64,000 bases of DNA from Polynucleobacter sp. (GTDB taxonomy: Bacteria > Pseudomonadota > Gammaproteobacteria > Burkholderiales > Burkholderiaceae). A program made the translations under genes and the position numbers. The stretch is taken from NCBI RefSeq assembly GCF_044342855.1, contig NZ_JBIIPA010000008.1:146-64145 (forward strand), in the 5' to 3' direction. A model generated the notes under the pieces. It was not told where the DNA came from. It saw only the letters and a list, made by a program, of their open reading frames with translations, and did no database searches. Positions 27,106 through 42,902 of the stretch are shown piece by piece. Numbering within the stretch: the stretch's first letter is position 1; each line of letters begins with the position of its first letter.

Positions 27106-28134
27106 TTAGCGCTGCTGAGAATCTGTCCGGTCTGCGGATGGAACCACCACTTCAGCAACCTCCAATACCAAAGTTTTGTAATTCAAATTTGGCAGGCGAA
27201 CTTTTGCGCCCTGAAAAAATACGTCTGCTTGAGCAAGCCCACCAGTCAGCACTTTAAATGGCGGCTTGCCATAAAAGGATGCGCCTACACCAGGCTCAAC
27301 CATCTTGTTCTGCATCTTTCCAGAAGCATCACTCACGCAAACAACCTGCTTTGATTTCACCTGCACATACACCATATCCGCCGCTTTACGAGGCGCATCT
27401 GGCTTATAACTAATAATGCCTTCCTCAGCAGGGCAGGCTGTTGAAGCCTCAGTGCTGACTGCGGGAACTGCAACTACAGGCGCAACAACTGCTGAAGTGA
27501 CGGGCGCAGGCACTACTGGGGGTGCCGGCTCAATAATTTCTTCTTTTACAACAACGATTTCTTCTGGCTGATCAGCAAAGAAGAGTGGGCGTAAATTAAT
27601 TATCGCGAAAACCAATGCAGCCAATACGCTAATCCAAAGAAGCAACTTCTTTGATGAGGCAGGCTTTGATCTTGCTGAAGTCGCAGATAAGGGAATTTCT
27701 TTTGAGGTAACTTTTGTAGACTCTACTTTTTTGACTGAATCTTTTTTTTCTTCCTCAATCACCAATGCTGGAGTTTGAGTTTCCTCCGCTACTTCTTTGA
27801 GTTCTACAGCTTCTTTTTTTGACTGCGCTTTTTTTTCTGGAGCTTTATTAGACTCTTCAACTTTTGGCGGTTCAATATTTTTTACTGGGGTTTGAAGGCC
27901 ATAGTCGAATACTTCCTCGTCACTTAATTTGAGAAGATTTGCCACTTTTCTAGCGGCAGTAAATTTATTCTGAGCTCCGTAGAAATAGCTGGATTCGCCA
28001 TTTTCAATTTGAGATATTTGATGGTGTGAAAGACAGGCCATCCTACCGAGATCTTTTGTGCTCAGACCGTGCGCTTCCCTAGCCTTAGAAAATGCCTCTT
28101 TACGGATCTCAGGAAGTTTGGGTTTGATGTTCAC
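27106..28134 (-). CDS. RodZ-like cytoskeleton/HTH membrane protein
   Basis: N-terminal XRE-type HTH, a Lys/Glu-rich linker, a single TM helix (LLLWISVLAALVFAII), and a C-terminal DUF4115-like beta domain. Confidence 0.6.
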   Translation of the reverse strand: MNIKPKLPEIRKEAFSKAREAHGLSTKDLGRMACLSHHQISQIENGESSYFYGAQNKFTAARKVANLLKLSDEEVFDYGLQTPVKNIEPPKVEESNKAPEKKAQSKKEAVELKEVAEETQTPALVIEEEKKDSVKKVESTKVTSKEIPLSATSARSKPASSKKLLLWISVLAALVFAIINLRPLFFADQPEEIVVVKEEIIEPAPPVVPAPVTSAVVAPVVAVPAVSTEASTACPAEEGIISYKPDAPRKAADMVYVQVKSKQVVCVSDASGKMQNKMVEPGVGASFYGKPPFKVLTGGLAQADVFFQGAKVRLPNLNYKTLVLEVAEVVVPSADRTDSQQR

Positions 28135-28216
28135 AAAAGTATTTAAAGTGATTTATCTATCGAAATAATGCCCATTAACAGTGGCTATATAAAGCCAGGG
28201 GGAACTAGCCCTAGAG

Positions 28217-28843
28217 CTAGCTATTCTGGATGTTTTCTAAATCGGATTCAAGATACTTCGCTACTAATGTTTGAACTGACTCCACATGCATCTTGTTCAT
28301 TACTCTAGCCTTGTGGACTTTAATCGTGGCATCTGTCGTCCCTAGTTTGACGGCAATATCCTTATTCAGCAATCCCTTGACCAACCAAAAGCAGACTTCT
28401 TTTTCTCTAGGAGTGAGGGTCGCATGATCTTTCTTGGTTTCGACCTCTTTGGAAACGCGTTTGAGCTGGCGTCTATCAAATTCAAGGGCATCAGCAACAG
28501 CCTTCAGTAAATCCTCCAAATTGAAGGGTTTAAAGAGAAAATCAACCGCTCCTCGCTTCAGGCTTTTCACGATTTGATGGGGGTGGCTTTTACCGCTTAC
28601 AAATACAATCGGGGTTTTACGACCCAGTTCGACCAATTTTTCCTGCAAATCTAGGCCAGTCATATCGGGCATTTGCATATCCAGCAAGATGACGGCTGGC
28701 GCTACTGGCACTGAATGCTCTAAAAATGTCACCGCAGAGGAGAAATCCTCCACGACATAACCCACGTCCTTGAGCATTCTACTTAAGGAGGTACGCAACA
28801 ACTCATCGTCGTCGATTAGGTAAATATGGCCAACTTTAGTCAT
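28217..28843 (-). CDS. response regulator, LuxR/FixJ-type DNA-binding output
   Basis: Receiver domain (IYLIDDD, LLDMQMPDMTG, KP) plus a C-terminal LTPREKEV...GLLNKDIAVKLG HTH. No kinase gene is adjacent. The start was trimmed to MTKVGH. Confidence 0.8.
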   Translation of the reverse strand: MTKVGHIYLIDDDELLRTSLSRMLKDVGYVVEDFSSAVTFLEHSVPVAPAVILLDMQMPDMTGLDLQEKLVELGRKTPIVFVSGKSHPHQIVKSLKRGAVDFLFKPFNLEDLLKAVADALEFDRRQLKRVSKEVETKKDHATLTPREKEVCFWLVKGLLNKDIAVKLGTTDATIKVHKARVMNKMHVESVQTLVAKYLESDLENIQNS

Positions 28844-29072
28844 TGAATTTAAAGGGAAAAGTAGTAGACAAGGCAATGTACCGCAGCTTTTTTGCGAAGG
28901 ATATTAGCCCTCAAGCTAATGATGAGCTCAAATCACCAAATACAATAGAGAAATCTGCTTGTTGCGGCGTATGACAAGAACACAGGAAAAGCTACATAAA
29001 CCCCTGCGTTCCGCCTAGTCTCACGGCACAATAGAGCTTTTCGACAAATTCTTTTCTGGAGTCCATATCAGC

Positions 29073-30791: not shown

Positions 30792-30826
30792 AAAAAGCCC
30801 CTAAGTAAAACTAGGGGCTTTTTTAA
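30792..30826. terminator. bidirectional terminator between ilvD and the PCu(A)C gene
   Basis: Stem AGCCCCTA/TAGGGGCT with an 8-nt loop, flanked by A5 and T6 runs. Confidence 0.6.
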
Positions 30827-30846: not shown

Positions 30847-31335
30847 TTAGTGTTTCATCGCTCCACCGTGACCGGCACCAGGATTACCCATCGCATTAAC
30901 CGGCATCTTTACCTCTACTTCGCCTGCCTTGGCAAACTTGAGCTTAACTGGAACGGTCTCGCCGGCAGCCAATGGCGCCTTGATGTTCATGAACATCAAA
31001 TGCATACCGCCTGGCTTCAATTCCACCGCACCACCTGCTGGTACAGGGATATCTTTCACTTGGCGCATTTTCATAACATTGCCTTCCATCGCCATTTCAT
31101 GCAACTGCACTTCACCAGATACTGGTGAGCTTGCAGAAATGAGTTGGTCGGCAGCACCTTTGTTCTCAATCTTCATAAAACCGCCGGCTGCCATTTGACC
31201 AGGAACAGTCGCGCGCGTATAAGCGTTTTCAATTTGCACGCTACCCACTTTAGCGTTTTGAGCTTGTGCAGTAGCAGCTAAACCAAAACCCACAGCAGCA
31301 ACCAATAAAGCATTTAATAATTTATTGCGTTTCAT
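30847..31335 (-). CDS. periplasmic copper chaperone PCu(A)C (DUF461)
   Basis: Signal peptide, plus the HEMAMEGNVMKM and GGMHLMFMN His/Met motifs of the PCuAC family. Confidence 0.8.
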   Translation of the reverse strand: MKRNKLLNALLVAAVGFGLAATAQAQNAKVGSVQIENAYTRATVPGQMAAGGFMKIENKGAADQLISASSPVSGEVQLHEMAMEGNVMKMRQVKDIPVPAGGAVELKPGGMHLMFMNIKAPLAAGETVPVKLKFAKAGEVEVKMPVNAMGNPGAGHGGAMKH

Positions 31336-31442
31336 TTGTACACCCTCCTAGTTATTCTTAAATCCCGAGATATTCCTCGAGCTCTCTTTCAAATTTAATT
31401 CTTATCCGTTAACTTTATCGCAACTCATCGCCCAAGGACATA

Positions 31443-31757
31443 CTATTTTTTAGGCCTGTCAGAATCTATTAATGGATATGCATCTGCTACATAAGCTGGC
31501 CCTTTTGAAAGCATCACAATCAAGGCGGCTATAGCCAAGGTCAAAACCATACCCAAAAAGAATATTTCTGTACTGATCACCAGTATGTCAATGATCCTCT
31601 CTGCTTTGGGCGACATCAGCAATCTCGCCAGCAAACTAGGCAGCGCTATTGCCAGGCTACCCATTACGGTAAATTGGGGCAGCTGATGCAATACCTTGCG
31701 CTCCAAACCTGGTTCATAGGTTTGATACCCAGGCAGTTTCCTTAGCCACTTACTCAT
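31443..31757 (-). CDS. small 2-TM membrane protein, unknown family
   Basis: 104 aa with two long hydrophobic helices. Its ATG overlaps the stop of the upstream gene (ATGA). Confidence 0.45.
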   Translation of the reverse strand: MSKWLRKLPGYQTYEPGLERKVLHQLPQFTVMGSLAIALPSLLARLLMSPKAERIIDILVISTEIFFLGMVLTLAIAALIVMLSKGPAYVADAYPLIDSDRPKK

Positions 31758-32341
31758 GCTGCAAGTCTATCGTAATAGCTATTGGCACTGCCACGCACGA
31801 AGATATCTCTTTTTCCAGCCAGCTCAGATCTCAAGGTGTCGAGCCTCTCATCAATCATGGCATAGACAGGTCGCAAGGATTTGGCCTGTTCAGACAAGAG
31901 GCTACTGAGTTCTCTCTTAGAAAAAACACTCATACCAGCAGTGCCCATTAAGGCAAAAATACCGGTACCCAGCTGACGCTTGTACTTTTCGATGTCATTA
32001 ATCTTTTTATACAAAATCGCGAGATCTTTTAAGTAACTCCTGCCGATCTTTTTAGGAACATGGCCCAAGTAGTGATCATCAAACCCCTGAATCAAAGCAT
32101 CATCTGAAGATAAGTCCTTAGGCAACTTAACCAGAAATGCCCTTCTAGAGGAGTGATTGATCCAAATATATCGAATAAGCTCTACACAGGAATAGCGATC
32201 AATCGGCTTACGCGATGGGAAGTGATTATCGCAATAATGCCCTTCGAGCAGATTGCTCGGCAGCAAGATCTCTTGCGATACTTTAGAAATAATCTGTTTT
32301 GCTGTAGCCCCATTTTCAGGGCGCTCAATAATGGCGTACAT
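31754..32341 (-). CDS. hypothetical protein (195 aa), unknown family
   Basis: The start was trimmed to the ATG at 32341, which has GGAGG 5 nt upstream. One hydrophobic segment (GTGIFALMGTAGMSVF). No motif recognised. Confidence 0.45.
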   Translation of the reverse strand: MYAIIERPENGATAKQIISKVSQEILLPSNLLEGHYCDNHFPSRKPIDRYSCVELIRYIWINHSSRRAFLVKLPKDLSSDDALIQGFDDHYLGHVPKKIGRSYLKDLAILYKKINDIEKYKRQLGTGIFALMGTAGMSVFSKRELSSLLSEQAKSLRPVYAMIDERLDTLRSELAGKRDIFVRGSANSYYDRLAA

Positions 32342-32421
32342 CAAAACCTCCAAATGCATTCTTAAATCAAAGGCAAAAATTCTTGCCAAACGACATGACA
32401 AAGCCATGCCAACAAAGTGAT

Positions 32422-32799
32422 TTAAGACTGGGTAGGAGGCGCTCTAGAGGGAAGCCTGACCCATGCAGACAGAATCTGAGGGGCTTGATAGGAACTTAAT
32501 GATCGAGCTACATAGCTCTGTGGAGCGGCGAACTCAAATGCACAAATACTTGGTAACAAATAGATTGGCTGCACCACACAGTATGGGCAGTGGCTACCCA
32601 TGGCGGGTGATGAAGAGGTCTCATCATCACCGATGACCTGGGTCATCTTGCTACCATTGCTAGAGCAAATCTCAACCACAAATCCTTGACCATTGTTGGC
32701 TAAAGACAAGGCTTGTGAAACAGCAGGCGCAAGCGCACCCAGCAAGATAGCTAAAGCGGCTATCCAGTGAACGAGCTTGCGGTACTTAATAAAGTACAT
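32422..32799 (-). CDS. DUF2946-family protein, copy a
   Basis: N-terminal HWIAALAILLGALAPAVSQA, a CPYC motif, and a PSRAPPTQS C-terminus. Divergent paralog of the other two copies. Confidence 0.65.
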   Translation of the reverse strand: MYFIKYRKLVHWIAALAILLGALAPAVSQALSLANNGQGFVVEICSSNGSKMTQVIGDDETSSSPAMGSHCPYCVVQPIYLLPSICAFEFAAPQSYVARSLSSYQAPQILSAWVRLPSRAPPTQS

Positions 32800-32822
32800 C
32801 TTTAACAATTAAATACATCCAA

Positions 32823-33233
32823 TTACCAGCTCATTGTCTTTGTGCCGTCTTTGAACAAGGCATCACCAGTAACTTTTGGGCTACCAAGTTGAACTCCGGA
32901 AATTAAATCTGCTTCAGAGTAGCCGGCTTGCTTTAAGCACATTGGGCACATAATGACTAAGCCACCTTTAGCAGCAATATCTGACAGCTCTTTTTGTTGA
33001 GCGGCATACTTCTCTGACCCAGCTTTAACACCCAAGATAACGGATTTGTCATTCAAGAAAATGCTCAATGGGTGGCCGTTGGCTGAGTGATGCTTACCAA
33101 AGTTAATCGCCATGGTTGAGCGATGCATTTCATCGGTTGAAAGGTTGATAAAGAGTGGGTCATTAGCGCCAGCAAAAGCCGATAAAGACAAAGTTGCCAA
33201 TACAGCAATGACTACAGATTTAAGTGATTTCAA
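32823..33233 (-). CDS. exported DsrE/DsrF-fold protein with CPMC motif
   Basis: Signal peptide ...SAFA. The core pattern INLSTD...MAI...G.PLSIFLNDKSV.LGV...VIMCPMCLKQAGY matches the DsrE/YchN-like fold. TTG start. Confidence 0.55.
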   Translation of the reverse strand: MKSLKSVVIAVLATLSLSAFAGANDPLFINLSTDEMHRSTMAINFGKHHSANGHPLSIFLNDKSVILGVKAGSEKYAAQQKELSDIAAKGGLVIMCPMCLKQAGYSEADLISGVQLGSPKVTGDALFKDGTKTMSW

Positions 33234-33339
33234 AAATATAGTGGTATTCCCTTTTTAATAAAACAGTTTATTTTCTTAGTAAATCCAATAAGTGGTTTGA
33301 TTTAAATCAACCCCACCTAAAACCTCGCGACCAAAATAA

Positions 33340-35284
33340 TCAGTTAAAGCTTGCAGATAAACCAATTGACCCCCAAGTCCCTGGCATTGGGTAACCCTGG
33401 CGATAGCTGTATTGTTGGTTAAAGATGTTCTCAATCATTACAAAAACCTCACCCTTCTTACCTAACTCTGGAACTGGATAGGACGCGCGAGCATTAGCCA
33501 CTGCAAAGCCATCAACTTTCGTTGTGTTGGTAAATCCACTATTTCGGGCTAAGTTTTGTGTATATATCGATGTTTGAAACTGAGCGTCTACAGATACCCT
33601 AAACTTATATACATAACCCGTGAGTGCAGCGTTAAACGCATTCTGGGGCATATAAGGGAGGTTGACTGTGCTGTTGTTATTTAGATAAGTCCAGCCCAAA
33701 AATCCAGTTAACTCAGGAATGATTTCGCGTTGACCTGAGAGCTCGACACCCTTTGTGGTGTACTGGCCAATTGACACCCAATTAACAACTGGTCCAGCCT
33801 CTGTAAATGTTGCACGATTGCTAATAGCATCCTGAAAGAGACTCAAATCAATTCGGCTCTTCTTGTCCGGATAGAACTTTCCACCAACCTCAATATGATT
33901 CATTTCTTCTGGCGAAAGATTTGCCCATGAGTTGTTAGCTGTTGCACCAAATGCCTGCGTCCAAACTGCGTTAGCTGCATTCATCGCCGGACCCTCTAGG
34001 CCGGGATAGTTAATACCTTTAGACGCATTGGCAAACAAAGTTGCTCTATCAGAGATCAGGGATAAACCACCGTAAGGCGCGGCCTTGGAGGCGTAGTAAT
34101 TATTCTGATATGTACGAACACCAGCGGAAGGTTGTAGAGACCAAGCATCACTTACCTTCATGTTGTGGCTTAAACCAACATACGGAGAAGTCAGTTTAAA
34201 AGTAGGTAGATTTGTTTTAACTGTTCCAGTAACTGGCGGCCCAACCCTGCTTTGAGTAACGCTTCCATATGAAGTGTCGTAATCCAACCCAAGAACTAAG
34301 CTACCCCCAGTCCACGGGGTAATGTTTTCCTTCCAACGGAAACCCTGCATAGTAAATGGATTATTTTCGGTACCCCACCCACCAGCACCATTGTCATTAT
34401 TAAAGTTGCCCTTGCCAGTATTGCTATAGAAACGGAACTCACCTTCGACCGCATCATATTGATGCTTTACAAAGGCTGTAACCATTTGAGCAGCAGAATC
34501 ATAAGTTGGCGCAATCGCAGGCGCCGGCAAGGTGTTATTTCCCGGGTCGGTTGCTGTATTGTTAATAGCCATTCCACTCACGCCAACCGACCAATTGCGA
34601 TCTAGCTTTAATCCTAAGCCACCCATAATGTTGCTCAACTGGCCGCTAGCATTAGCTCTTTGGCCATTGGATTTAGAAAATCCCTGAGCAAGATTAAAGT
34701 CAACATCATCATGACGTCCAGCCATATCCACCTGCTCAATCACCGTATTGAATGAGCCATATGAAACTCTTGCATTCCCTGACAGACCATTTCCAGGGCC
34801 CGCTGACTTGGTATTCATATTGATCGAGGCAAAGTTATTACCGTTTACCTGAGGCTGTGCGCTCTTGTAGATGGTAATGTCCTTCATACCGTTGACTGGT
34901 AGCAGGTCCAATAAGGCATGATTCCAGATCGGCATATACATCGGTACGTTATCAATGTAGGTTTTAATTTCACTACCAGGCCTACTTAAACCCATACCGC
35001 GAATAAAGATTGATCCACCCTCAGCCCCACCATATGAGCCCACCGGGTTGTATCGAGAGATCTGAGTTTCTGGCGTGTTACGCAAGGCAGATGCTATCGG
35101 CTGCATGTAAGTCGCGAATTGTTTCATCAGTGATTACGGCGGAGGTGCTGGAGAACTTGTCAATTTCAACCTCAGCAATATCCGGCTTTGCCGTCACAAT
35201 GACGTGAGGAACGCTTTGTGCATACACATTGCCAGCCACGATGAGTGATGCAGCAAGCGCTAATTTGGTTTTATATAAATTCAT
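33340..35284 (-). pseudogene. TonB-dependent receptor, interrupted by a frameshift
   Basis: The signal peptide and the start of the plug (ORF 35078-35320) lie in a different frame from the rest of the plug and barrel (33340-35127; terminal ...GLSASFN). The two frames overlap at 35078-35127. Reading suggests a 1-nt indel near 35086-35092. Confidence 0.7.
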
Positions 35285-35297
35285 TTTTAGCCTCGAA

Positions 35298-35780
35298 TTA
35301 ATGTTTTGAATCAGATTCATGCTGCATGCCGTGACCCATAGTCACGACACCATCAAATGAATCCAGTTGTTTAATTTTTTGCGGGGAAAGCGTTGCTTCT
35401 GCAGTCTTAAGTTTTGCCGTGATGTTGTTAGCAATCTCTTTAGAAATACCTGCCGATGCAATAGTACTAGGATCTTTAAATCCAGCACCTCCACAAGCAA
35501 TGATTTCCCAATCAGCATGTTTTCTTCTGAGAAGCGCCCGGCCACCCTTTTGACCTTGAGTCCAATCTGCAATGGCAACTTTCCCCTCAATGACGATCGG
35601 GTTGGTTTGCACCTTCAAATTGGGCTGATCAAACGTCTTTGAAATCAACGCCTTGATCTTCTCCTGAGACTCTGCCTCAGCCTGTGGATGAGCAATAGCA
35701 TTAGAAGCTATGCAAATAGCTGTAAATATGAATAATGAAATCTGCCTTAAAGAAGGCCAACTCACTTGAATTGAAAACAT
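35298..35780 (-). CDS. exported protein with a C-terminal His/Met-rich tail (copper-uptake associated?)
   Basis: Signal peptide ...NAIA-HP and a MGHGMQHESDSKH tail. The start was set to the ATG at 35780, which has GGAG 6 nt upstream and lies inside the repeat. Confidence 0.45.
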   Translation of the reverse strand: MFSIQVSWPSLRQISLFIFTAICIASNAIAHPQAEAESQEKIKALISKTFDQPNLKVQTNPIVIEGKVAIADWTQGQKGGRALLRRKHADWEIIACGGAGFKDPSTIASAGISKEIANNITAKLKTAEATLSPQKIKQLDSFDGVVTMGHGMQHESDSKH

Positions 35781-35802
35781 GTAATTCTCCACACAACATC
35801 AC

Positions 35803-35817
35803 GGCAACTTGGTTGCC
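35803..35817 (-). promoter_or_regulatory. conserved hairpin in the spacer after DUF2946 copy b
   Basis: GGCAAC-TTG-GTTGCC palindrome lying between the DUF2946 stop and the next RBS. An identical copy sits at 39047-39061. Confidence 0.35.
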
Positions 35818-35849
35818 AACTACATAGCTAGGCTATGCCCTAAAAAGAC

Positions 35850-36224
35850 TTAGGCTTGTGAAGGAGGTGCTGCTGAAGGGGGTGTTACCCAAACAGCGAG
35901 AGGCTTGGGTGATTGATAGAAAAGCTGTGGCAGTAAAGCCAGTGTTTGCGGCACCTGAAAGGTGAGGTTGGTATTAAATGCTGGCGTGATGGCTGCATGA
36001 GCGATGCAATAGGGGCATGGCTGATCTGATTCAGCCAGTTCTGTACTCTCAAGGCTTTGAATACTAATTTGTGACCTTGCTCCATCTGCCGCACAAATTT
36101 CCATGGCAAAACCTTGGCCATGTTTCGCTAGCGATACCGCTTGAGAAACTGCTGGCGCAAGCGCACTCATTGCGATTGCTAGAGCAGCAATCCAGTGAAT
36201 GAGGCGGTTTTTGCGGAAATTCAT
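35850..36224 (-). CDS. DUF2946-family protein, copy b
   Basis: HWIAALAIAMSALAPAVSQA, a CPYC motif, and a PSAAPPSQA C-terminus. Confidence 0.7.
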   Translation of the reverse strand: MNFRKNRLIHWIAALAIAMSALAPAVSQAVSLAKHGQGFAMEICAADGARSQISIQSLESTELAESDQPCPYCIAHAAITPAFNTNLTFQVPQTLALLPQLFYQSPKPLAVWVTPPSAAPPSQA

Positions 36225-36236
36225 GATGGGGAGATT

Positions 36237-36614
36237 TTATCGATTATTTGAATGTTCTGCTCCAAGCACTACACCCTGTACTAAATTGATGAGGGTAAAC
36301 CCGTAATCCTCCAAGCAAGTTGGGCAAACAATGATGGTTGCACCATTTGCAATAGCCTGCCTTATCGCCTCTTGTTCTTTGGAAACGTTTCCTGATTTAA
36401 CCTCTACCCCAAGATTAACTGCCTTGTCATTGAGGTAGATAACAATCGGATACCCTTTTTCTGCGTATTGCCGACCCGCATCCAAAGCCATTGAAACCTT
36501 GGCTGGATCATTGGTGGCAAGATTAATGTAGATTGGCTCTTTCGCAGCTAGAGCGGATAAGGGTAAAGCAATGACTGCTAGCACAGACAATATTCTGAGT
36601 ATTCTAGAAATCAT
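36237..36614 (-). CDS. exported DsrE/DsrF-fold protein with CPTC motif
   Basis: Signal peptide ...SALA. Same core pattern as 32823-33233 (INLATND, IVIYLNDKAV.LGV, IIVCPTCLEDYGF). GAGGGAAG RBS. Confidence 0.55.
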   Translation of the reverse strand: MISRILRILSVLAVIALPLSALAAKEPIYINLATNDPAKVSMALDAGRQYAEKGYPIVIYLNDKAVNLGVEVKSGNVSKEQEAIRQAIANGATIIVCPTCLEDYGFTLINLVQGVVLGAEHSNNR

Positions 36615-36650
36615 CGCTTCCCTCGTCTTTTATCTTAGATAATTAACTGC

Positions 36651-38798
36651 TTAAAACTTCATGTTGGCTGAGACATAGAAAGTTCTACCCATCCCGGCCA
36701 CTCCCGTACCCCAAGCTACGCCATTCATGGACATGGTCTTGCCTTGACCTACATACGCCCCACCCTGCGGTAGTGCATAGAGTTTATTTAGCAAGTTCTC
36801 AATGCCAAAGTTCACGCGATATTTTTTATCATCATATGAAGCACGCAAGTTATATAAAGAATATCCACCAGTAGCAATCTCATTTCTAACAGCATTAAGA
36901 TTGGTCTTAGCTGCCACGAACTGCCCTTCAACAGTGTTAGTCCAATTCGCACCCAAGTACTGCACTAAGCCAATTTTTCCGTTAAGCGGCATGATGTTGT
37001 AGAGATTCCCACCGGTTGTCACGTTTTGACCCCGCGTATATGAAGCTATACCAGTCATCTGGAAGCTGCCTAATTGAGGCAGTTTGCCCAACATCACATT
37101 GCCCGATAAATCTAAGCCGTAGAGTTGCGCGTCTTGGTTAACATATTTCAGCACATTGAATTTATTCACGGTACAAGTTGTGTTGCATGCTGCATCAATG
37201 TAGTTACTCACATAGGTGTAGTAAGGATTAGTCTTGAATCCCCATGACTCTTTATTAGCATCATGCCAATCACTCGCGAAACTCACTGTGTTTGCAACCT
37301 CGGGGGCTAGCGTAATTTGACCTACATAACCATTGCCATCACCTACAAAGTTATTCATTACGGCTGCCATAGGGACGGAAGACCATGAGTAACGCTCATA
37401 GAGATTTGGTGACCTAGTTTTACGAGAATAGCCAGCCTCGTAATTTTGACTGTTATCCGGCTTATATCTAGATAACGCAGTTAAATCCCAGTTGTAATCT
37501 GTTTGCTGACGTTGCTGAGCATTAAATCGATTGGCATCAGCGTTGTACGCAGTAGCGCCATAACCCGCTACATTTCCTGCATTAGAAGCCACTTGCTCGA
37601 CACGAACCCCAGCTAGACCCATCCACTCCTTAGTCCACTGTTGCTCAAACTCACTAAACAATGCCAGTCGATCTCTAGTGCCATTATTAATATTATGAAA
37701 TGTGTTTGGCCCCATCATCCCCGTGGTGGAGTATGCAGCAGGCCACCAATCATTTAATTTATAACCCCGCCATTCCGTACCCAATCTCACTAACTGAGTA
37801 TCGGAGAGTGACATAGTGCCCTTAATAATGGCACCATTGGTTGAGCTTGCAGTCAGCATAGGCATGGCTGGAGAAGTTCTTGCTCCAGTGTTGTCATCCA
37901 TCTGGTGATTCACCATCTGGTTGTAGGCTTGGGCTTCTAATTTTCCCCAGTCATGCTGACCGGTATATTTCAGATTAAATTGTGAGCCAATGTTTTTAGT
38001 CATGTCCATACGTTGGTTTGAATAACCTTCGAATGGTATGAATTGATATCCCGCCTTAAACTCCACTAAGTGGTTGTCTTTTTGCCAAGCTAAAGAGAGC
38101 TGTTGATTGGTTGCAATATATTTAGAGGCGCCGACTGTGCTCGGAGATATCCCATTTCCAGCAGGCTTGAAGTTGCCACCAGCGGTGTAATTTCCTGCCT
38201 TTGCAGAATCTACCGTGTAGTTGGCGCTGAATTCATCGCCAGCAGCGGTCACATTTAAGTTACCAGCAATTGCGCTGGCATTACTACTGTACGATGCGCC
38301 AACCTCACCTTGGGTAAGCGTCTCACCCTTTTTGGCAAAGACTGGTGGTAAAGACTGAACTGAGACTACACCACCTAAACTGTCACCACCCGCACTCACT
38401 GGTGAAAGGCCAGTGATCACTTTGATGCTACCAACATTGGATGGGCTGATATACGAAAGTGGTGAGTTCATATGGTTTGGGCAAGATGAGATTAAATCTA
38501 AGCCGTCAACTTTGACTGCCACGCGATCATCTGCTAAACCGTGTATTGATGGCAATCCAGAAACACCTCCCCCGGTATACATGCTTACACCGGGGATATT
38601 CAGGAGCATGGCTGCAGTATTTGGCGTGTTTACACGTGACTGATTGAGCTCTTTGCCTGAGATCGTTGTTTGCGTAAGAGGCGCCTCCTGAATCCCAGTC
38701 ACAGTGAGGGTATCCAAATTAGGGGCGGCTTGACCGTATGCATTAGTAAGCATCAAAGATGCAACTAAGGCTATCGGCGTTATTTTTAATGCGTTCAT
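36651..38798 (-). CDS. TonB-dependent copper receptor (OprC/NosA-like)
   Basis: 715 aa with a signal peptide, a plug, and a barrel ending in the terminal F. CPNHM (C106, M110) and HQM (H298, M300) fit the CxxxM/HxM site described for OprC. Confidence 0.7.
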   Translation of the reverse strand: MNALKITPIALVASLMLTNAYGQAAPNLDTLTVTGIQEAPLTQTTISGKELNQSRVNTPNTAAMLLNIPGVSMYTGGGVSGLPSIHGLADDRVAVKVDGLDLISSCPNHMNSPLSYISPSNVGSIKVITGLSPVSAGGDSLGGVVSVQSLPPVFAKKGETLTQGEVGASYSSNASAIAGNLNVTAAGDEFSANYTVDSAKAGNYTAGGNFKPAGNGISPSTVGASKYIATNQQLSLAWQKDNHLVEFKAGYQFIPFEGYSNQRMDMTKNIGSQFNLKYTGQHDWGKLEAQAYNQMVNHQMDDNTGARTSPAMPMLTASSTNGAIIKGTMSLSDTQLVRLGTEWRGYKLNDWWPAAYSTTGMMGPNTFHNINNGTRDRLALFSEFEQQWTKEWMGLAGVRVEQVASNAGNVAGYGATAYNADANRFNAQQRQQTDYNWDLTALSRYKPDNSQNYEAGYSRKTRSPNLYERYSWSSVPMAAVMNNFVGDGNGYVGQITLAPEVANTVSFASDWHDANKESWGFKTNPYYTYVSNYIDAACNTTCTVNKFNVLKYVNQDAQLYGLDLSGNVMLGKLPQLGSFQMTGIASYTRGQNVTTGGNLYNIMPLNGKIGLVQYLGANWTNTVEGQFVAAKTNLNAVRNEIATGGYSLYNLRASYDDKKYRVNFGIENLLNKLYALPQGGAYVGQGKTMSMNGVAWGTGVAGMGRTFYVSANMKF

Positions 38799-38844
38799 TT
38801 CTACTCCGAGATATTTAAAGTCTATGAATTAATCTGAATTGGAT

Positions 38845-39024
38845 TTATTTCTGAATAGATGAAATTGGCGTGAGCACAATCTCTGCGCTACCCAAGGCGG
38901 TATGGGTATTGGTTGCATTTGAAAGAATGAGATAGCTGGCATAGAGGAGCCAAATGGCCACACCCATAGCAATACCAACATAGACGCGCTTTAGGCGTAA
39001 TGAAATTTTTTCAGATAAAAACAT
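38845..39024 (-). CDS. small single-TM ORF (59 aa), uncertain
   Basis: It shares its RBS and first codons with the 35780 gene because these lie inside the repeat. The rest is unrelated, with one hydrophobic helix. Confidence 0.3.
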   Translation of the reverse strand: MFLSEKISLRLKRVYVGIAMGVAIWLLYASYLILSNATNTHTALGSAEIVLTPISSIQK

Positions 39025-39046
39025 GTAATTCTCCACACAACATCAC

Positions 39047-39061
39047 GGCAACTTGGTTGCC
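39047..39061 (-). promoter_or_regulatory. conserved hairpin in the spacer after DUF2946 copy c
   Basis: GGCAAC-TTG-GTTGCC, identical to 35803-35817. Confidence 0.35.
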
Positions 39062-39093
39062 AACTACATAGCTAAGCTATGCCCTAAAAAGAT

Positions 39094-39465
39094 TTAGGCT
39101 TGTGTAGGAGGTGCTGCTGAAGGGGGCGTTACCCAAACAGCAAGAGGCTTGGGTGATTGATAGAAAAGCTGTGGCAGCAAAGCAAGTGTTTGCGGCGCTT
39201 GGAATGTGAGGTTGGTATTGAATGCTGGCGTAATGGCTGTTTGAGCAATGCAATATGGGCATGGCTGTGCCTCTGCGCGGTCTGCCTGGTCTTCGCTTTG
39301 AATATTAATTTGCAATTTATTGCCATCAGGAGAGCAAACCTCCATTGCAAAACCTTGGCCATGCTTCGCTAGCGATACCGCTTGAGAAACTGCTGGCGCA
39401 AGCGCACTCATTGCGATTGCTAGAGCAGCAATCCAGTGAATGAGGCGGTTTTTGCGGAAATTCAT
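39094..39465 (-). CDS. DUF2946-family protein, copy c
   Basis: The first ~40 aa are identical to copy b. CPYC motif and a PSAAPPTQA C-terminus. Confidence 0.7.
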   Translation of the reverse strand: MNFRKNRLIHWIAALAIAMSALAPAVSQAVSLAKHGQGFAMEVCSPDGNKLQINIQSEDQADRAEAQPCPYCIAQTAITPAFNTNLTFQAPQTLALLPQLFYQSPKPLAVWVTPPSAAPPTQA

Positions 39466-39502
39466 GATGGTGAGATTTTATCGGAATTTTGCTTTTTGCA
39501 TG

Positions 39503-39526
39503 AAAAAAGGGGCTTGCGCCCCTTTT
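39503..39526 (-). terminator. rho-independent terminator after tctA
   Basis: Stem AAGGGGC/GCCCCTT with a 4-nt loop, followed on the minus strand by a T6 run. Confidence 0.55.
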
Positions 39527-39562
39527 CCCTTATGAAATCGCTATTTCTAGCTTATTTCACTC

Positions 39563-41718: not shown

Positions 41719-42722
41719 TTACTTAGCTAAGAAGCCAGCTTCAGTCATTAACTGCTTATGCAAAGCTTCATTTAATGTAAGCCAATTTCTGAACTCTTTA
41801 CCAGTCATAAATGTCTGATTGAACGCACCATCAGCCATGAACTTCTTCCACTCTGGTGTAGCGCGTACTTTTTTGAACACATCGATATAGTAATCAACCT
41901 GCTCTTGAGTTACGCCAGGAGCCATGAAAATACCGCGCAACATGACATAGTCAGTAGGAACGCCGGCTTCTTTACAAGTTGGCACGTCATACCATGATTG
42001 GGTATCGGTAACCTTCTCTTTGTATGGCATGCGAGTGTCATCAAATACGCACAATGCGCGTAATTTGTTTGCACGCCATTGAGCAACCGCTTCAATTGGA
42101 TTGTTCACAGAAGAATCAATGGATTACCAACGAGTTGCACAGCCACGTCGCCACCCCCTTTGAATGGGATGTATGTGAACTTAGCGCCAGTTGCCTTTTC
42201 AATCGCTACAGTAATGATCTGGTCTTCCGATTTAGATCCAGTACCACCCATTTTGAACTTGCCAGGACCAGCCGCCTTAGCTGCGTCGATATATTCCTTG
42301 GCAGTTTTGTAAGGCTTATCAGCGTTATCCCATAAAACAAATTGATCGAGAGCCAACATCGCTACTGGAGTCATGTCCTGCCAGTTAAATGGAACACCCG
42401 TTGCCAATGGAGTTGTGAACAAGTTTGAGAGGGTAATTACGATCTTATTTGGATCGCCCTTAGCTTCTTTCATTGCTAAGAAGCCTTCAGCTCCTGCGCC
42501 AGCACCCTTGTTCACAGAAATCACTGCCTGTTTCATCAAGTTATTTTTTGTAATGATTCCTTGGATCATGCGAGCCATCTGGTCAGCACCACCGCCAGGA
42601 CCTGCAGGAATGATGAACTCAACTGGCTTGGTTGGTTCCCAAGCAGCGAAAGCGGGTGAAACACTAGCAACACCGAGGGCTAATGCGGTGGAAATCAATG
42701 CCCCCTTTAACTTCATCTTCAT
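41719..42722 (-). pseudogene. tctC: Bug/TctC-family periplasmic substrate-binding protein, interrupted by a frameshift
   Basis: The N-terminal part (signal peptide, GGGADQMAR, to ...VAVQLVGN) and the C-terminal part (IDSSVNNPIEAVAQW... to the end) are in different frames. Reading suggests a missing base at about 42121-42122. Confidence 0.7.
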
Positions 42723-42902
42723 GAACGCTCCTCCAAAAAATTTTGTATGCCAATAGTACTTTGGCTTCTCTTTGTTATGCATGGATTTTTATCCATAACA
42801 GGGCATGAATACTTGATTGCCATCAATAATTGCCAAATGGGCAGTTAGGGGTAACACTAGCTTATTGGTAGTAACCCTATAAGGATTTTGTAGAAAAAAT
42901 TC

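Follow-up and report, generated by a model that had tools for sequence, protein, structure and literature searches.

How did a locus arise in which the same gene families follow one another twice, and what might it do? The question is raised by a 64,000-nucleotide (nt) stretch of DNA from Polynucleobacter sp. (contig NZ_JBIIPA010000008.1, positions 146 to 64,145; hereafter the window), in which DUF2946 genes, TonB-dependent receptor genes and genes of exported DsrE-fold proteins alternate between tctA and ilvD and the gene of a PCuAC copper chaperone comes last. A first-pass annotation of the same DNA had described tandemly duplicated modules of copper uptake. Based on comparison with related loci, we consider it likely that the region represents one copper-acquisition and cuproenzyme-supply operon of mosaic origin, composed of a three-gene core and inserted cassettes and controlled in a manner resembling CruR of Bordetella pertussis.

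Gene content of the locus

Our open reading frame (ORF) list and profile searches recovered 12 of the 12 genes named in the first-pass annotation, all on the minus strand, and its gene content, order, strand and coordinates proved right (ORF calls, Pfam and NCBIfam; the Pfam cutoffs are 23.7 bits for PF11162 and 22.7 bits for PF02635). With the families assigned, the locus also belongs, as had been proposed, to the copper loci that combine CruR/DUF2946, a TonB-dependent receptor and PCuAC (Roy et al. 2022, PMC9426467); both homology and gene context give this assignment good support. In the direction of transcription, with protein lengths in amino acids (aa), the features are as follows.

39466-39562, minus strand: tctA-leader c intergenic region, with the tctA terminator hairpin AAAAGGGGCGCAAGCCCCTTTTTT and then about 35 nt with a TAAAAT-like element
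39094-39465, minus strand: DUF2946/CruR-type leader copy c, 123 aa (PF11162, 47.5 bits; alignment)
39025-39093, minus strand: structured intergenic region with three predicted hairpins (RNA fold)
38845-39024, minus strand: s59, a 59-aa gene with one predicted transmembrane helix (orthologs with conservative substitutions)
36651-38798, minus strand: OprC-like TonB-dependent receptor 1, 715 aa (Plug and barrel; CPNHM at 106-110, HQM at 298-300)
36237-36614, minus strand: exported DsrE-fold protein 1 (DsrE1), 125 aa, with VCPTC (signal peptide; PF02635, 24.5 bits)
35850-36224, minus strand: DUF2946 leader copy b, 124 aa (PF11162, 43.4 bits; 85% identical to copy c)
35774-36242, minus strand: duplicated 'portable leader' segment, partner 39018-39483 (DNA alignment)
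35298-35780, minus strand: NF033672 exported protein, 160 aa (NCBIfam, 123.8 bits, cutoff 50; C-terminus MGHGMQHESDSKH)
33340-35284, minus strand: TonB-dependent receptor 2, frameshifted (split ORFs 35284-35078 and 35127-33340)
32823-33233, minus strand: exported DsrE-fold protein 2 (DsrE2), 136 aa (signal peptide, GHP, VCPMC, tail ...TKTMSW; PF02635, 27.6 bits)
32422-32799, minus strand: DUF2946 leader copy a, 125 aa from ATG (PF11162, 60.6 bits; CPYC; PSRAPPTQS)
31754-32341, minus strand: p195, a conserved cytoplasmic protein (alignment of 20 orthologs)
31443-31757, minus strand: p104, with two predicted transmembrane helices and the motif KGPAYVADAYPL (ortholog alignment)
30847-31335, minus strand: PCuAC copper chaperone, 162 aa, with signal peptide (PF04314, 136.6 bits)
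30792-30823, minus strand: intrinsic terminator with a 13-bp stem, which closes the cluster back to back with ilvD (terminator scan)

Mosaic origin of the repeated gene order

The order of gene families does repeat within the locus and recurs in other genomes (L007, L086 and L008), and to this extent the earlier description in terms of modules stands; the modules, however, are not duplicates of each other. Receptors 1 and 2 share only a stretch of 129 residues with 31% identity (E 4e-4). The sole recent DNA repeat in the region joins 39018-39483 to 35774-36242 (466 versus 469 nt), and the two copies are 88.7% identical over 469 aligned columns, with sharp edges and flanks that match at chance level. 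This portable leader begins 18 nt 5' of the DUF2946 ATG, which in copy b is exactly the DsrE1 stop codon, and spans the leader gene, the structured intergenic region, the GGAG ribosome-binding site and the ATG TTT of the next gene. The s59 and NF033672 genes share an apparent 'VENYMF' start because this is the duplicated end of the leader; their true starts are the ATG after GGAG. We also considered s59 as a remnant of NF033672 and rejected it: 'VENYMF' belongs to the leader, both genes occur in L059, and s59 is conserved.

An ancestral module of DUF2946 gene, small ORF, receptor and DsrE gene that was duplicated in tandem, with subsequent divergence of the copies, would explain the repeated order of families, the 85% protein identity of leader copies b and c, and the relationship of the DsrE-like proteins, which are clear paralogs with 40% identity. 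It is hard to reconcile with receptors that are as dissimilar as any two TonB receptors and differ in their copper-ligand motifs, with unrelated small genes (a single-helix membrane protein for s59, a 160-aa periplasmic protein for NF033672), with a repeat confined to about 470 nt with sharp edges, and with the presence of the cassettes alone or otherwise combined in related genomes. We regard such a history as most improbable. The comparisons show a mosaic of cassettes, not one module duplicated in tandem.

A conserved triad at the tctA-ilvD site

About 100 related loci were gathered via exact-protein look-ups, one genome scan and one metagenome scan, and their genes were typed by phmmer with the window proteins as queries. 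The cluster sits between tctA and ilvD in every surveyed locus with flanks present. Its commonest form is the bare triad DUF2946-DsrE-PCuAC, observed in 20 of 26 complete loci including that of P. yangtzensis; one of the loci scored in this way, L034, holds a 4-kb unassigned insert. The gene directly before PCuAC is DsrE-like in 51 loci and p104 or p195 in 17 loci. The core at this site has received at least five different receptor cassettes, which occupy the position between the leader and the DsrE-like gene, and one DUF2946-p195-p104 cassette. Among them are s59 with the OprC-like receptor, accompanied by the short DsrE1, and NF033672 with receptor 2; the DUF2946(RAPP)-p195-p104 unit can precede PCuAC. 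The full composite of the window is also found in Polynucleobacter sp. AM-25C3 (L007) and in L086, and partly in L008.

Because the bare triad is the commonest form and the receptors vary, our survey shows the DUF2946 leader, the DsrE-like gene and PCuAC as the invariant core, with the receptors as optional cassettes. The DsrE-fold protein, earlier seen as an addition made by each module, is indeed a recurrent component, but it appears as a core member, present without any receptor in the bare triads. About 90 related loci show the tctA-ilvD site itself to be a hot-spot for cassettes in Polynucleobacter, probably one prone to recombination. A neighbourhood survey had been proposed as a check on the copper hypothesis, and co-occurrence of DUF2946, DsrE-like and PCuAC genes across related loci is what we found, mostly in Polynucleobacter. 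Most of the adjacency evidence comes from one genus and is phylogenetically non-independent, which lessens its weight for a copper operon.

At least three other receptor cassettes were observed at this site in related genomes. L013 (5260-8861) carries a BfrG-like TonB-dependent receptor (TBDR3) with PepSY_TM, an 86-aa 2Fe-2S ferredoxin-like protein and a 92-aa ORF; L034 (1039-4960) and L030 (584-4520) carry a receptor (TBDR4) with a 419-aa BNR/GH43-like exported protein and a TlpA/ResA-like thioredoxin; and L021 (1736-4902) and L064 (958-4201) carry a siderophore-type receptor (TBDR5) with a DJ-1/PfpI protein that has a twin-arginine (Tat) signal.

The exported DsrE-like family

Both DsrE-like proteins of the window score just over the PF02635 cutoff. 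An AlphaFold (AF2) model of DsrE1 (predicted local distance difference test, pLDDT, 79.7) finds its best Foldseek matches among YchN/DsrE-family structures (1jx7, 3mc3, 1l1s and 2hy5). In this model CPxC stands at a helix start, straight after a strand; its first Cys occupies the canonical cysteine position of the DsrE family (aligned with 3mc3 and 3pnx), and its second Cys is also found in YchN (CKTC).

The family is a small one: a profile search of 1.84 billion representatives gave only 433 clusters at E<=1e-3, and 135 when the threshold was E<=1e-10. Its members nearly all have 135-150 residues and a signal peptide, and share the motifs 'PLFVNLT', 'GHPxTxFLN', CxxC and a C-terminal '...TRTLSW' tail, of which CxxC is the sole invariant motif across 37 diverse members; CPMC is the commonest form (41 of 115 CxxC-bearing sequences). 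According to the family alignment DsrE2 is a typical member, and DsrE1 is a short form without the C-terminal tail and the GHP histidine, whose relatives were found only in Polynucleobacter or metagenome contigs. A genome scan with DsrE1-subtype patterns returned four Polynucleobacter loci only, and the metagenome scan only close DsrE2 relatives, so that the evidence outside the genus amounts to about a dozen loci.

With a signal peptide in nearly all members and no DsrF/DsrH or TusBC partner genes in about 100 neighbourhoods, the family does not resemble the cytoplasmic sulfur relay known for DsrE. Its links to copper genes extend outside Polynucleobacter. DsrE-like and PCuAC genes are adjacent in a high-GC genome (L016 and L017), and in L016 an uncalled DUF2946-like ORF (CAFC ... 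RGPP) lies just 5' of the pair. Two independent PCuAC::DsrE fusions (P0124 and P0182/P0388) each occur on several contigs; the former is found directly 3' of a DUF2946 gene (L104 and L105) and the latter in a metal island with a second DsrE gene, ApbE, ZnuABC and CobW (L106). Exported DsrE-like domains are also fused to DUF305 (P0171, L107:6001-6867) and to a CHRD domain (P0165).

The first-pass annotation had taken the DsrE-fold protein to be a component not described from copper systems, and this agrees with the literature: full-text searches gave no paper linking DsrE-fold proteins to PCuAC or copper chaperones, and DsrE is not mentioned in the text or supplements of the CruR paper (Roy et al. 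2022, PMC9426467). We infer that the DsrE-fold CPxC protein is a candidate for a new periplasmic copper-handling component. Our wider proposal, to which we give somewhat less than an even chance, is that the exported DsrE CPxC family may be an unrecognised copper handler that works with PCuAC, either carrying Cu(I) or serving as a copper/thiol reductase, and that Polynucleobacter may in addition use copper-sensing leaders with arrest motifs other than RAPP (AAPP, HAPP, QGPP), set in series along one operon, which unmask ribosome-binding sites.

Some observations fit this proposal poorly. The GHP His is not kept in DsrE1, one member (L018) has no metal genes nearby, and members on plasmids adjoin glutaredoxin-family, peroxiredoxin and rhodanese genes in neighbourhoods that are mixed and mostly redox. 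The family could accordingly consist of general periplasmic thiol or sulfur proteins, for instance thiol:disulfide oxidoreductases or persulfide carriers that protect or repair exported cysteine proteins and have no dealings with copper, their place beside PCuAC reflecting stress co-regulation and not metal hand-off. In addition to the plasmid neighbourhoods, this would agree with the position of CPxC at a helix N-terminus after a beta-strand, as in thioredoxin-type active sites, with the identity of its first Cys as the canonical DsrE sulfur-carrier Cys, with the TlpA-like thioredoxin in a comparable place of another cassette, and with the presence of AhpC/TSA genes in CruR operons. Metal chemistry is nevertheless indicated by the fusions to PCuAC and DUF305, by the DUF2946 leader 5' of DsrE-like genes in three lineages, and by the predominance of Met or His between the cysteines (CPMC, CPHC). 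We therefore consider a role confined to thiols or sulfur unlikely, and it would in part coincide with copper handling, as a CuA-pathway reductase like TlpA is still part of copper delivery.

Further members were seen in other settings. P0197 joins the DsrE-like domain to an unassigned N-terminal region that is rich in His and Met and starts ...MGMNMEDMDHS. In Candidatus Competibacteraceae (L014:7001-10833 and L015) an exported DsrE-like gene lies directly 5' of a bufferin-type cluster for a ribosomally synthesised and post-translationally modified peptide (RiPP), containing BufA1, MbnB-like and HvfC-like genes; this bufferin (copper RiPP) cluster also has an extracytoplasmic function (ECF) sigma factor and a RskA anti-sigma factor, with hemerythrin and NnrU genes divergent. 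On Acinetobacter plasmids (L101, NZ_CP032268.1, 5920-9088; and L103), the DsrE-like gene is near rhodanese-domain genes, a peroxiredoxin gene and tatABC. On p1_010034 a DUF2946 gene with a QSRAPP tail is found about 2 kb from the DsrE-like gene, with an IS5 element in between.

The receptors

Receptor 1 possesses both Plug and barrel domains (PF07715, 58 bits; PF00593, 94 bits), and its closest solved relative is OprC of P. aeruginosa (6fok; E 2.7e-19, over the N-terminal 320 residues). Copper is bound in OprC by Cys143 and Met147 of the plug together with His323 and Met325 of the barrel (PMC8610252). C106/M110 and H298/M300 of receptor 1 align to C143/M147 and H323/M325 and are all identical, and the CxxxM and HxM ligands are kept in 11 of 11 receptor 1 orthologs, distant ones included. 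Both motifs are absent from receptors 2 and 3. The match of receptor 1 to TIGR01778 of NCBIfam (120.5 bits) lies below the equivalog cutoff of 472.45, and judged by these scores receptor 1 is a distant relative, not an equivalog under that model. The designation OprC-like, used before for receptor 1, suits this receptor alone, where the four ligands are kept; receptor 2 belongs to a different subfamily and lacks them.

A sequence search of the PDB gave no relative of solved structure for receptor 2, and its intact orthologs match the siderophore-receptor model weakly (74.6 bits, cutoff 223.5). A copper chelate is a plausible substrate, considering its NF033672 partner. The split of this gene noted earlier is real: a 2-bp deletion between 35097 and 35096 changes GAT TTA GC to GA--TAGC, and the undeleted sequence is present in the alignment of four intact receptor 2 orthologs. 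The identical frameshift occurs in L004, the sole other assembly over the site, which is 100% identical there, so independence cannot be claimed. Receptor 2 is apparently a pseudogene inactivated by this deletion, a sequencing error and a real lesion not being separable from L004.

The weak siderophore-model match of the receptor 2 orthologs raises the alternative that the receptors import iron-siderophore or heme instead of copper and that the locus is a mixed metal island. The heme-receptor model scores of receptor 1 are slightly above its TIGR01778 score (all three are below cutoff), and TBDR5, found at this site elsewhere in the survey, scores above the siderophore-model cutoff. Yet the best solved relative of receptor 1 is a copper receptor whose four ligands recur in every ortholog, the flanking genes are all copper-related (DUF2946, NF033672 and PCuAC), and for receptor 2 a copper chelate (chalkophore) is as likely as ionic copper. 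Import of iron or heme is consequently very unlikely in our view.

The DUF2946 leaders

A CPYC-containing DUF2946 gene was said to head each unit, and it does: CPYC is present in three of three copies, all of them above the PF11162 cutoff, and in nearly all of about 80 related leaders. The leaders end in PSAAPPTQA (copy c), PSAAPPSQA (copy b) and the canonical PSRAPPTQS (copy a), with the proline motif three to four residues from the C-terminus. Exactly 44 residues separate CPYC from the arrest motif in copies a, b and c, and the same distance holds for each related leader in which both motifs occur; this agrees with the CruR family rule, which places the arrest motif about 45 residues (within 1-2) after CXXC (Roy et al. 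2022, PMC9426467).

The Arg of RAPP is found in copy a alone, and copies c and b have AAPP. Throughout the related loci RAPP is present in 22 of 22 leaders that precede p195, and the leaders heading receptor or DsrE genes have AAPP (about 30), QGPP (about 11), HAPP (6) or, rarely, RAPP. From this distribution the forms without Arg are conserved lineage variants and not products of decay.

In leaders c and b the 3' half of the mRNA is rich in C and poor in G, with 20-23 C versus 7-9 G per 60 nt, and in this resembles the Rho utilisation (rut) region proposed for cruR; copy a shows the bias less strongly. Leaders c and b have no Shine-Dalgarno sequence, in keeping with the low translation that has been reported for CruR. 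The gaps downstream of leaders c, b and a are 69, 69 and 80 nt, in comparison with 162 nt in B. pertussis. Copy c comes first after the tctA terminator, whereas copies b and a are internal and lie 12 and 23 nt after the preceding gene (in the case of b, after the DsrE1 stop). On the minus strand of the window (39466-39483 and 36225-36242) the AAPP leaders begin after ...TAAAATCTC(A/C)CCATC-ATG, and a GGAG-type site precedes every cluster gene except these; their translation may begin in a near-leaderless or some other non-canonical manner.

Control by stalling as in CruR faces two difficulties here. Because the R139A+A140S mutant of B. pertussis abolished downstream expression (Roy et al. 2022, PMC9426467), the AAPP leaders c and b may stall poorly or work differently. 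In addition, CutF is a DUF2946 member with the opposite logic, in which copper induces stalling (bioRxiv 10.1101/2025.02.05.636593). Since members can act either way, the direction of regulation is not given by family membership, and repression by copper is suggested here by the uptake and supply nature of the downstream genes.

The missing Arg can also be taken, together with the pseudogene, as a sign that the composite locus is a relic. The inactivation of receptor 2 and the nearby frameshifted tctC mean that parts of the locus may be decaying, and in the extreme case the internal leaders and the second cassette would be on their way out and only the first cassette and PCuAC functional; a 2-bp deletion in receptor 2, a 1-bp deletion in tctC next door and the absence of the Arg of RAPP from leaders b and c would all be in accordance with this. 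However, AAPP is kept in the leaders of diverged genomes with the 44-residue spacing intact, the full composites of Polynucleobacter sp. AM-25C3 and L086 have an intact receptor 2, and all other genes are intact and conserved. We thus find it improbable that the locus is a relic.

Predicted RNA structure and operon organisation

The last leader codons and the following intergenic region are predicted to fold more stably than shuffled controls (z -3.8, -2.8 and -3.6 for leaders c, b and a); the fold of leader c has -32.5 kcal/mol (z -3.76). In these folds the Pro-Pro codons and those that follow pair with the GGAG/GGAGG of the next gene and enclose two or three hairpins. The closing helix of copy c is formed by CCU CCU ACA CAA paired with the GGAG ribosome-binding site of the s59 gene. 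RNAalifold recovered this helix in 12 AAPP leaders heading different genes, and the codons ACA CAA GCC are invariant in AAPP leaders, with variation at upstream synonymous sites.

A stalled ribosome could open such a helix, and stall-dependent unmasking of the downstream ribosome-binding site, for which CutF and SecM set a precedent (bioRxiv 10.1101/2025.02.05.636593), may reasonably be proposed from the predicted folds. Three results go the other way: RNAalifold shows no covariation in the closing helix among the 12 AAPP leaders, the helix is not recovered in the p195 or QGPP leader alignments, and CCUCC of the Pro-Pro codons is trivially complementary to GGAGG. Compensatory CCN/GGN' pairs seen in single folds were considered as covariation support for the helix and dropped, as they were not upheld in the p195 and QGPP alignments.

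The only strong intrinsic terminator is that at 30823-30792, after PCuAC, and the tctA terminator hairpin precedes leader c; the 80-nt intergenic region after copy a contains a terminator-like hairpin (32387-32372). A promoter scan gave fewer sigma-70-like sites than shuffled sequence and none convincing 5' of any leader, and a promoter presumably lies between tctA and leader c. The cassettes are separated by gaps of 12 and 23 nt, with no terminator and no room for a promoter, and the leaders would therefore be met one after another as three internal checkpoints on a single transcript. We take this as the simplest reading, in which the genes are probably co-transcribed.

Accessory and neighbouring genes

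PCuAC has the motif H-x10-M-x21-H-x-M from residue 79 and a His/Met-rich C-terminal extension. The protein previously described as a His/Met-tailed exported protein matches NF033672, 'copper uptake system-associated protein', over the full model and has no solved relative. The s59 gene is conserved 5' of the OprC-like receptor in L001, L002, L007, L009, L021, L024 and L059, and its product has no Pfam or NCBIfam match.

The true start of p195 is the ATG at 32341 and not 32407: the alignment of 20 orthologs begins with MYAIIERP, and GGAGG stands before it. p195 and p104 match no family in searches of Pfam, NCBIfam, PADLOC and PHROGs, p195 has no sequence match in the PDB, and its AF2 single-sequence model is unusable (pLDDT 54). 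A long helical C-terminal half is predicted for p195, and the motif KGPAYVADAYPL of p104 is invariant. The start of p104 overlaps the end of p195 by 4 nt, an arrangement that suggests translational coupling. The two form a conserved pair, always behind a RAPP-type DUF2946 leader; in L086 (6172-7102) their order is reversed and the sequences are far more divergent.

Outside the cluster, the adjacent tripartite tricarboxylate transporter has its periplasmic binding protein encoded by tctC (41719-42782, minus strand), and this gene is broken into ORFs of 225 and 129 aa. The lesion, near 42121/42122, is a 1-bp deletion relative to L001 and L011 that changes AATCACAT to AATC-CAT. It makes tctC the second frameshifted gene, less than 7 kb from the receptor pseudogene, and could represent real gene decay or assembly errors. 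Beyond ilvD (27106-28876, minus strand) are a LuxR-type response regulator that has no kinase next to it and a 342-aa helix-turn-helix/RodZ-like membrane protein; both are conserved beside the copper locus in L001, L011 and L013, all related genomes examined.

Proposed function and its implications

In the copper operon that we propose, the core of DUF2946 leader, DsrE-fold CPxC protein and PCuAC would have taken in three cassettes, each with its own leader copy: s59, an OprC-type receptor for ionic copper and DsrE1 in the first; the NF033672 periplasmic protein, an unrelated and now dead receptor and DsrE2 in the second; and a RAPP-type leader, p195 and p104 in the third. By analogy with CruR, at low copper a ribosome would stall at the C-terminal xAPP of each leader, blocking Rho on the C-rich 3' half of the leader mRNA and probably also opening the helix that hides the ribosome-binding site, so that the downstream cassette and PCuAC are expressed. 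When copper binds the nascent CPYC, stalling would be relieved, the leaders completed and expression turned off. The three leaders would thereby serve as successive checkpoints on a transcript that ends at the terminator 3' of PCuAC. The OprC-like receptor would import ionic copper; the DsrE-like CPxC protein would handle it in the periplasm, as a Cu(I) carrier or as a reductant for copper and acceptor cysteines; and the copper would then pass to PCuAC for delivery to cuproenzymes.

The periplasmic route by which imported copper reaches cuproenzymes in Gram-negative bacteria is only partly known, and the DsrE-like family may fill a role in it, being always paired with PCuAC in one genus, fused to it elsewhere and under the same leader type in three lineages. 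It represents a concrete and cheap candidate for a step of periplasmic copper supply. If the proposal is true, the family would supply the periplasmic link that is missing between OprC-type import and the metallation of cuproenzymes, and in some lineages it could take the place of thioredoxin-fold partners of the Sco/TlpA type. The natural variants of the arrest motif (A, H or Q for R) and the series of three leaders could show what an arrest peptide requires, and the series could also reveal whether transcription attenuation and masking of the ribosome-binding site are combined. Lastly, the interchangeable receptor cassettes illustrate how micronutrient uptake may diversify in streamlined freshwater bacteria.

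Comparison with known systems

The closest known counterpart is the CruR (Bp2923)-bfrG-bp2921 operon of B. pertussis, regulated by copper-dependent relief of stalling and Rho-dependent termination (Roy et al. 2022, PMC9426467); its composition is bp2923-bfrG-bp2921, and not bp2923-bp2922-bfrG as given in the first-pass annotation. Like CruR, the window leaders have an N-terminal export-like segment, a CXXC and, at a conserved distance from it, a C-terminal arrest motif with prolines; their 3' region is rich in C and poor in G, a TonB-dependent receptor is encoded downstream, and PCuAC is among the families reported in such operons. In contrast to the CruR operon, there are three leaders in series instead of one, two of them with AAPP instead of RAPP; the intergenic regions are shorter (69-80 nt, compared with 162 nt) and AT-rich, and their predicted folds would sequester the ribosome-binding site of the next gene; and the window has no PepSY_TM gene. 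Roy et al. 2022 (PMC9426467) make no mention of the DsrE-like, NF033672, s59 or p195/p104 components.

Sequestration of the ribosome-binding site is shared with CutF-cutO-cutG of Rhodobacter capsulatus, where stalling on a DUF2946 leader melts a stem that hides this site (bioRxiv 10.1101/2025.02.05.636593), the design in the window being a prediction. Copper-induced stalling on CutF switches on a detoxifying oxidase, whereas the genes downstream in the window are for uptake and supply, and opposite logic is expected. Compared with OprC (6fok; PMC8610252), receptor 1 conserves the plug CxxxM and barrel HxM ligands position by position, but its overall similarity is low and falls below the TIGR01778 cutoff. 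The operon partners also differ, being s59 and a DsrE-like protein for receptor 1 and the FoxB-like PA3789 for OprC, which leaves room for a periplasmic partner (PMC8610252).

PcuC of Bradyrhizobium diazoefficiens, which takes part in CuA assembly with ScoI and TlpA, has a core Cu(I) site and a C-terminal Cu(II) site (PMC6669012), and in the window PCuAC the motif corresponds to the first of these and the His/Met tail to the second. In both systems PCuAC is paired with a periplasmic cysteine-motif protein, but the partner in the window has a DsrE fold with CPxC and not a thioredoxin fold (Sco CxxxC, TlpA CxxC), and the cluster contains no sco or tlpA gene. With DsrE, TusD and YchN (PF02635; 1jx7, 2hy5) this partner shares the fold, the Cys at the canonical position and, with YchN, the CxxC; it differs from them in being exported, in the lack of DsrF/DsrH-type partners, in the ...TRTLSW tail, in its copper-gene neighbourhood and in the fusions to PCuAC. 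As a whole, the locus seems to belong to the known CruR-controlled copper systems, and what appears new in it is a DsrE-fold partner of PCuAC, the plasticity of cassettes at one site, leaders in series and arrest motifs other than RAPP.

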